Below, in pieces: positions 52 through 288 of a stretch of 324 nucleotides of DNA. This stretch comes from Escherichia coli (GTDB lineage Bacteria > Pseudomonadota > Gammaproteobacteria > Enterobacterales > Enterobacteriaceae), in NCBI RefSeq assembly GCF_003334385.1, contig NZ_QOWN01000205.1; one strand, 5' to 3'. The position numbers and the translations under genes were made by a program. The notes under the pieces are model-generated. The model saw only the letters and a program-made list of their open reading frames with translations, did no database searches and had not been told where the DNA came from. The first letter of the stretch is position 1; the number at the start of each line of letters is the position of its first letter.

Positions 52-70
52 AATGAAAACAGTTCTCATT
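52..70. repeat. 19-bp imperfect palindrome AATGAAAAC-a-GTTCTCATT (candidate operator)
   Basis: Seen directly in the sequence: 9-bp arms around a central A at position 61, pairing at 8 of 9 positions (A57 against C65 is the mismatch). It sits 24-42 nt upstream of the ATG at 94, inside the AT-rich leader. The inverted repeat itself is certain; the confidence given is for it being a functional protein-binding site. Confidence 0.3.
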
Positions 71-82
71 GTCAACCGTAAC

Positions 83-90
83 GGTAAGAA
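83..90 (+). promoter_or_regulatory. Putative ribosome-binding site for the 94..288 ORF
   Basis: GGTAAGAA: the TAAGAA portion at 85-90 matches TAAGGA of the Shine-Dalgarno consensus at 5 of 6 positions, with a 3-nt spacer (ACT) before ATG 94. The match is weak to moderate and the spacing is short but within the usable range. Confidence 0.35.
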
Positions 91-93
91 ACT

Positions 94-288
94 ATGACAT
101 TTGTTCATCAGGTGATGCTGTACTTCTGTACGGCAGTCTGTGTTATGTATCTTCTTTCGGGTGGGTACAGGGCAGTGCGCGATTTCTGGCGCAGACAGAT
201 TGATAAAAGGGCCGCTGAGAAAATCAGCGCCAGTCAGTCAGCCGGAACAAAAACAGAAGCCCCACTCATTCCGGAACAACCTTCTTAA
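94..288 (+). CDS. Hypothetical small single-pass membrane protein, 64 aa
   Basis: Complete ORF running from ATG 94 to TAA 286-288, with an in-frame TAA at 85-87 immediately upstream, so ATG 94 is the first possible start. Residues 3-22 (FVHQVMLYFCTAVCVMYLLS) form an uninterrupted hydrophobic stretch of transmembrane length. It is followed by a cluster of basic residues (R26, R29, R33, R34, K38, R39), consistent with the positive-inside rule, i.e. N-terminus out and C-terminal tail cytoplasmic. The tail is hydrophilic and ends in a Pro-containing segment (APLIPEQPS). A purine-rich Shine-Dalgarno-like element lies 3-4 nt upstream. No competing ORF is present on the reverse strand. No homology search was possible. 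Confidence 0.6.
   Translation: MTFVHQVMLYFCTAVCVMYLLSGGYRAVRDFWRRQIDKRAAEKISASQSAGTKTEAPLIPEQPS
100..159 (+). other. Predicted transmembrane helix (residues 3-22 of the 64-aa ORF)
   Basis: Twenty consecutive mostly hydrophobic or aromatic residues, with no charged residue except a single His. They are bounded downstream by a GG-Y-R motif and a basic juxtamembrane stretch (RAVRDFWRRQIDKR). Judged by eye, without a prediction program. Confidence 0.55.

Follow-up and report, generated by a model that had tools for sequence, protein, structure and literature searches.

Overlapping cistrons of the ATGA type, in which termination and reinitiation couple translation of the two genes, are known from the trp operon of E. 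coli (trpB-trpA) and from many phage gene pairs, and short leader ORFs that act by attenuation or ribosome stalling are known from examples such as trpL, ermCL and secM. We compared both with a 14-codon upstream ORF (uORF) that ends on the start codon of a 64-codon gene in a 324-nt stretch of Escherichia coli DNA (the window). As in ATGA-coupled cistrons, the stop and the start share two bases and the downstream start is poor in Shine-Dalgarno (SD) sequence; unlike them, the uORF has only 14 codons and no ribosome-binding site of its own, is not conserved with the downstream gene and shows no selective maintenance. It resembles trpL, ermCL and secM in being a short ORF within the leader of a downstream gene, but lacks their alternative RNA structures, terminator, regulatory codon run and conserved arrest peptide. 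The same locus and gene order are found in the late-operon spacers between nanS-p and the S holin of Stx and lambdoid phages (PMC10462455; 933W Orf24/Orf25, VT2-Sakai H0118-H0120). However, the 14-codon frame is annotated in none of the four deposited phage records, which carry other, mutually inconsistent small ORFs at this place. On our analysis the uORF is probably incidental and unselected, and lies in the leader of a cistron inside the late operon of a prophage.

Five complete E. coli genomes contain the window in their chromosomes at 100% identity. Homologues that are at least 80% identical are present in 1,002 of 5,426 complete genomes (about 2,300 copies in all, up to seven per genome), and homologous spacers with 83-97% identity occur in 306 phage records, mainly of Stx-converting phages. 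In strain 2018-166, a tRNA-Ile/Arg/Arg cluster is followed in order by the gene for a nanS-p-like esterase of the SASA family, a 139-nt spacer, the DUF1378 gene (94-288), the DUF826 gene (from 314), and genes for a class II holin and a lysozyme. The window falls among the late/lysis genes of a lambdoid E. coli prophage of the Stx type, with DUF1378 as an internal cistron; positions 1-93 belong to the intercistronic spacer between the esterase gene and DUF1378. The last positions (314..324, + strand) are the start of the next cistron, DUF826, identified by annotation and by phrog_311 at 2.7e-37, and the sole match of an upstream HTH protein was phrog_1450, whose function is not known. One report on Stx phages (PMC8065619) describes this gene block as co-transcribed with the late genes, and another (PMC7547250) describes its transcription from the antiterminated late promoter. 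No sigma-70-like promoter was predicted in the window or in the 850 nt around it (L001 5850-6700), so that an independent transcript start inside the spacer was dropped as a candidate; the uORF therefore lies within an intercistronic spacer and the main ORF is an internal cistron, as the original prediction had allowed when it suggested that the main gene might be the second cistron of a longer operon. No Rfam family matched the window at E <= 1.

Two hairpins lie outside the window in this block. Directly 3' of the esterase stop, every spacer class has an A6-9 run and a GC-rich hairpin (L001 5962-5999, 39-2 nt left of the window), the arms of which differ compensatorily (CCGCCAGC/GCTGGCGG, CCGCCAGT/ACTGGCGG, GCCGCCGG/CCGGCGGC, GCCCCC/GGGGGC and GCCAGCGCC/GGCGCTGGC). 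Read on the minus strand, it is a hairpin followed by T7 that resembles an intrinsic terminator facing the late operon. The interval between DUF826 and the holin gene contains a 12-bp terminator-like hairpin with a T-rich tail on the + strand (L001 6614-6642), just 5' of the holin gene.

The downstream gene (94..288, + strand) encodes a DUF1378 (PF07125) protein of 64 aa. RefSeq names it "DUF1378 family protein", homologues up to 98% identical carry PF07125, and phrog_494 matches residues 1-59 at 1.5e-36. The product is a small prophage membrane protein (58-64 aa across homologues) whose N-terminal half is hydrophobic and whose tail is charged. The family is narrow: all 114 of 114 database matches come from E. 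coli or Shigella with at least 62% identity, and no distant homologue outside Escherichia/Shigella was found among them. At every locus examined, DUF1378 adjoins DUF826 two genes 5' of the holin gene, and phrog_8301 covers both DUF1378-like and DUF826-like parts.

ATG 94 is the true DUF1378 start. The N-terminus MTF(V/I/L)... is kept in all DUF1378 lineages, and two divergent lineages have a canonical GGAGG or GGGAGGG 4-5 nt before the same ATG (-9.5 to -10.8 kcal/mol). Diversity over 94-288 is highest at third positions (0.157 vs 0.089 and 0.072), and the DUF1378 frame is therefore the one under selection. The Ribo-seq study of strain Sakai (PMC5597208) lists ECs1210 (DUF1378) as translated, with no entry in what is apparently its SD column; only ORFs of at least 30 aa were tested there, and neither a peptide nor a coordinate from the spacer appears in its supplements. 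Our literature search for usable EHEC retapamulin data, for work on coupling in Stx late operons and for initiation profiling of this locus found none.

The window has GGTAAG (83..88, + strand) at 5-nt spacing before ATG 94, at the position taken by GGGAGG in spacer class IV, and this hexamer appears to be a decayed SD of DUF1378. Its duplex energy is -3.0 kcal/mol, compared with -9.5 to -10.8 kcal/mol in the L089, L086 and L112 lineages. Every uORF-bearing lineage has a weak main SD (-3.0 to -3.6 kcal/mol), and the strong-SD lineages have no uORF. SD strength at DUF1378 differs sharply from one lineage to another, from the GGTAAG of the window lineage to strong SDs (GGGAGGG, GGAGG or GGAG; -6.4 to -10.8 kcal/mol) in L086-L088, L112, L089-L091 and L130.

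The uORF (53..97, + strand; MKTVLIVNRNGKKL) runs from ATG 53-55 through 14 sense codons to TGA 95-97, which has its T and G in common with ATG 94-96 of the 64-codon ORF, so that the upstream stop overlaps the downstream start as in coupled cistrons. An in-frame TAA (50-52) stands directly 5' of ATG 53 and makes it the earliest possible start in this frame. The best duplex with the 16S anti-SD within positions -20..-3 of this start reaches only -2.4 kcal/mol. Both the frame on ATGA and the lack of an SD in front of it are thus exactly as the original prediction had described them. ATG 53 is accessible (P(unpaired) 0.78), with a U-run on its 5' side and AAA on its 3' side; AU-rich start contexts of this form can support SD-independent initiation.

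RNA structure offers no sign of a control element between the two starts. Compared with shuffles, the fold of the whole spacer has a z-score of -0.54 and that of positions 40-125 a z-score of +0.42, and no terminator was found on the + strand between the uORF and the DUF1378 gene. ATG 94 is as accessible (P(unpaired) 0.79) as ATG 53, and there is therefore nothing for upstream translation to unmask: the downstream start has the weak SD expected of a start that depends on upstream translation, without the occlusion. A structure-unmasking or attenuator mechanism was rejected because neither fold is better than shuffles, and together with the variable peptide described below, these results do not fit a leader that attenuates or stalls. 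The original prediction had favoured neither of its two readings; the results favour noise within the spacer, and leader-peptide control finds no support, as a significant fold and a terminator are both missing. Passive coupling may still occur, given the weak main SD (-3.0 kcal/mol) and the accessible uORF start.

To estimate how often such frames are expected, the 93 nt upstream of a fixed ATGA were shuffled 20,000 times with dinucleotides preserved. An ATG-initiated frame ending at ATGA appeared in 18% of the shuffles, and in 6.7% such a frame had 14 codons or more; these rates rose to 43% and 17%, respectively, when GTG and TTG starts were also allowed. The arrangement of uORF and ATGA is within chance expectation and is not statistically unusual, in line with the earlier caution that so short a frame could easily arise by chance.

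Loci for comparison were drawn from two viral-contig scans, four annotated phage records and the most divergent members of the family, and were counted as distinct 100-nt upstream types (n=55) since some contigs had entered twice. DUF1378 is intact in all 55. Of the 41 types with a homologous spacer, 37 keep the 14-codon ATG frame on ATGA and 4 have lost it, through ATG to ACG in L022 and L209, ATG to ACA in L078, and insertion of one A in L138 that shifts the frame to the stop at TAA 79-81. The remaining types have a non-homologous spacer: 13 have no ATG frame on ATGA, several of them with a strong GGAGG of their own, and one (L026) has an unrelated 20-codon frame on the same ATGA. The arrangement is therefore not kept wherever DUF1378 is kept, being lost in four homologous types and absent from 13 non-homologous ones; breakage of the frame in close relatives that keep the main ORF, which the original prediction had said would count against a function, is just what L022, L209, L078 and L138 display. 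At least 13 complete E. coli genomes from unrelated sources share the start-less ACG spacer, with 100% identity over 130 nt, and class III (L092/L120) has a weak SD with no uORF. The 20-codon uORF of L026 (MSVVLYLFLLDVSNNNGKKL) recurs in three more loci, begins 59 nt 5' of the DUF1378 ATG and ends at ATGA; it could be a coincidence, at 18% by chance, or a case of convergence.

Selection on the uORF was assessed in 87 distinct 340-nt haplotypes of the homologous class, which yielded 25 derived alleles at 53-93 after 53 A>T and 54 T>G had been left out as mis-registration artefacts of the frameshifted L138. By uORF codon position 1/2/3, the derived alleles number 10/7/6, where neutrality predicts roughly equal counts, and the synonymous share of coding changes is 6/23 compared with a neutral expectation of 22% (P = 0.40), so that the third-position or synonymous excess of a conserved micropeptide is missing; with only 25 alleles, these substitution tests could easily miss weak selection. 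Loss of the start or gain of a stop accounts for 2/25 changes, compared with 2.4 expected, and variability in the three columns of the start codon is about that of the remainder of 53-93. The peptide itself varies, with R/H/N/S/Y at codon 9, K/N/E at codon 12 and L/P at codon 14. Among the 25 alleles and 87 haplotypes, we found no sign of selection on the uORF peptide, start or frame.

The same stretch is nevertheless constrained as DNA. The DUF1378 leader (53..93, + strand), with a composition of A16 C8 G7 T10, has a pi of 0.090, compared with 0.185 for spacer positions 1-52 (which also carry many indels) and 0.157 for third positions of the main gene, and is thus about twofold less diverse than these neutral proxies. 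Positions 81-84, 87 and 89-91 are invariant in the 87 haplotypes, and the invariant clusters AACGG (81-84), A87, AAA (89-91) and ATGA (94-97) make up the DUF1378 ribosome-binding region. Codon periodicity is absent in every frame of 53-93 and the constraint therefore acts at the nucleotide level, for which an A-rich, unstructured translation-initiation region of DUF1378 would be the simplest account.

Three other frames in the spacer were considered. A second 14-codon mini-ORF on the + strand that the original prediction had not mentioned, ORF A (8..52; MENVKKRCFRISVF), ends with TAA 50-52 and abuts ATG 53 (TAAATG). A GGAGG stands before it, immediately outside the left edge of the window (L001 5996-6000; duplex -10.8 kcal/mol), and three of the five bases of this SD are mostly paired in a hairpin arm. 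Both its start and its SD are kept throughout the homologous spacer class, and its stop lies at -44, -40, -15 or about -75 from the DUF1378 ATG depending on the lineage; a strong-SD mini-ORF that ends exactly at ATG 53 is found in the window's own lineage only. The position of the stop is decided by the T6 run at 45..50 (+ strand), which is length-polymorphic (T5/T6/T7) among otherwise near-identical prophages and also disrupts the frames that cross 45-50, including the annotated Orf24-like frame. TAAATG becomes an ATGA overlap of ORF A and uORF in T5 variants, in the T7, L014 and L058 types ORF A reads on through the uORF, out of frame with it, as far as TAA 79-81, and it shrinks to 4 codons in Sakai/933W-type phages. 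A relay from ORF A through the uORF to DUF1378 was rejected as a general feature: it fits the window's own lineage and is not conserved elsewhere.

Frame 1 is open across the spacer in the window and in Sakai, and its tail (28..81, + strand) has, within the window, no start but an internal ATG (28-30) and ends at TAA 79-81; some Stx-phage records annotate it as a 41-aa protein (933W Orf24, VT2-Sakai H0118). In frame 3, a TTG-initiated ORF of 44 aa (69..203, + strand) overlaps the DUF1378 start and is annotated in some phage records; we judge it spurious. Coding in frames 1 and 3 was rejected on indels, a missing start and lack of periodicity. The motif (A/T)TGTCAA(C/T) at 69-76 survives in the otherwise unalignable spacer classes I, III, IV and VI, and provides the TTG or ATG start of the frame-3 ORF (phrog_26471).

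For the reading of the uORF as incidental, the leader 53-93 would mainly serve as the DUF1378 translation-initiation region, A-rich and unstructured, with the decayed GGTAAG as its SD, and the ATGA overlap would exist because DUF1378 has ACA (Thr) as its second codon and, by chance, an ATG in the matching frame follows a TAA immediately and stands 41 nt upstream. Ribosomes may occasionally initiate at ATG 53, which is accessible, terminate at ATGA and begin again at ATG 94, but neither this coupling route nor a peptide or regulatory switch would apparently be maintained by selection. We counted against this reading that 37 of the 41 homologous types keep ATG, frame and ATGA, that 53-93 is about twofold less diverse, that L026 has its unrelated uORF on ATGA, that a weak main SD goes with the uORF, that ATG 53 is accessible in a favourable context, that the strong-SD ORF A ends right at it in the window's lineage and that the substitution tests draw on only 25 alleles. 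Alternatively, the uORF would be a working translational-coupling device that raises expression of the SD-poor DUF1378, with ribosomes loading at ATG 53 directly or from ORF A at TAA 50-52, terminating at ATGA and restarting at ATG 94. This view draws on the overlap itself, the weak main SD (-3.0 kcal/mol), the accessible, AU-rich surroundings of ATG 53, the strong SD of ORF A (-10.8 kcal/mol) and its abutting or, in T5 variants, ATGA-overlapping stop, the retention of the frame in 37/41 homologous types, the lack of a uORF in strong-SD lineages and the constraint on 53-93. We nonetheless consider it unlikely, as spacers that have lost the start or are frameshifted persist with an equally weak SD (at least 13 complete genomes have the ACG form), class III (L092/L120) combines a weak SD with no uORF, disruptive mutations are not depleted and 7-18% of shuffles yield the arrangement by chance. 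Loading from ORF A adds little, because its SD is partly buried in the hairpin arm and the relay is not conserved, ORF A having 4 codons in Sakai/933W types and bypassing the uORF in L014, L058 and T7. An elaborated form, in which ribosomes pass from the strong SD in the 3' arm of the conserved hairpin after the esterase gene through ORF A to the uORF (over TAAATG, or ATGA in T5) and on to DUF1378 at a second ATGA, with the slippery T5/T6/T7 run as a heritable switch between this relay and a stop 12 nt before the DUF1378 start, is in our view very unlikely.

It is highly improbable that the spacer codes in another frame, so that the uORF would be the shadow of a real overlapping gene, either the 41-aa protein of 933W Orf24 / VT2-Sakai H0118 (from the esterase stop to TAA 79-81) or the frame-3 ORF with its TTG or ATG start (69-203). 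Several phage records annotate these ORFs, they have PHROG clusters (phrog_9558 and phrog_26471), and both the window and Sakai keep frame 1 open throughout the spacer. However, the clusters merely reflect repeated ORF calls in near-identical phages; the phage of the window has no Orf24 ATG and offers no start other than the internal ATG 28 or a TTG within the esterase gene, and 1-nt indels of the T-run shift frame 1. Neither frame 1 nor frame 3 has a significant third-position excess (10/7/6 and 7/6/10), the diversity pattern over 94-203 matches the DUF1378 frame, and the frame-3 ORF is reduced to 6 codons in class IV. A regulatory leader peptide acting by attenuation or ribosome stalling, or a functional micropeptide, is hardly credible: a short ORF does stand immediately 5' of the gene, but alternative hairpins, a terminator, a regulatory codon run and an Rfam match are all missing, folding is no better than in shuffles, and the peptide varies freely with synonymous changes at the neutral rate.

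If the uORF is indeed incidental, it shows how readily short frames that end on ATGA appear in the AT-rich spacers of phages, and retention of a frame among near-identical prophages should not count as conservation. If coupling were true, it would account for the expression of an SD-poor gene just 5' of the holin in Stx-type phages, a modest addition to a well-known mechanism. The ATG-type and the start-less ACG-type spacers coexist in different prophages of the same strain (strains G1/2, G6/7, G8, STEC17-183 and SW070917; genomes NZ_CP060083.1, NZ_CP060061.1, NZ_CP060057.1, NZ_CP075652.1 and NZ_CM129862.1), and strains with both spacers provide a clean natural paired test of uORF function.
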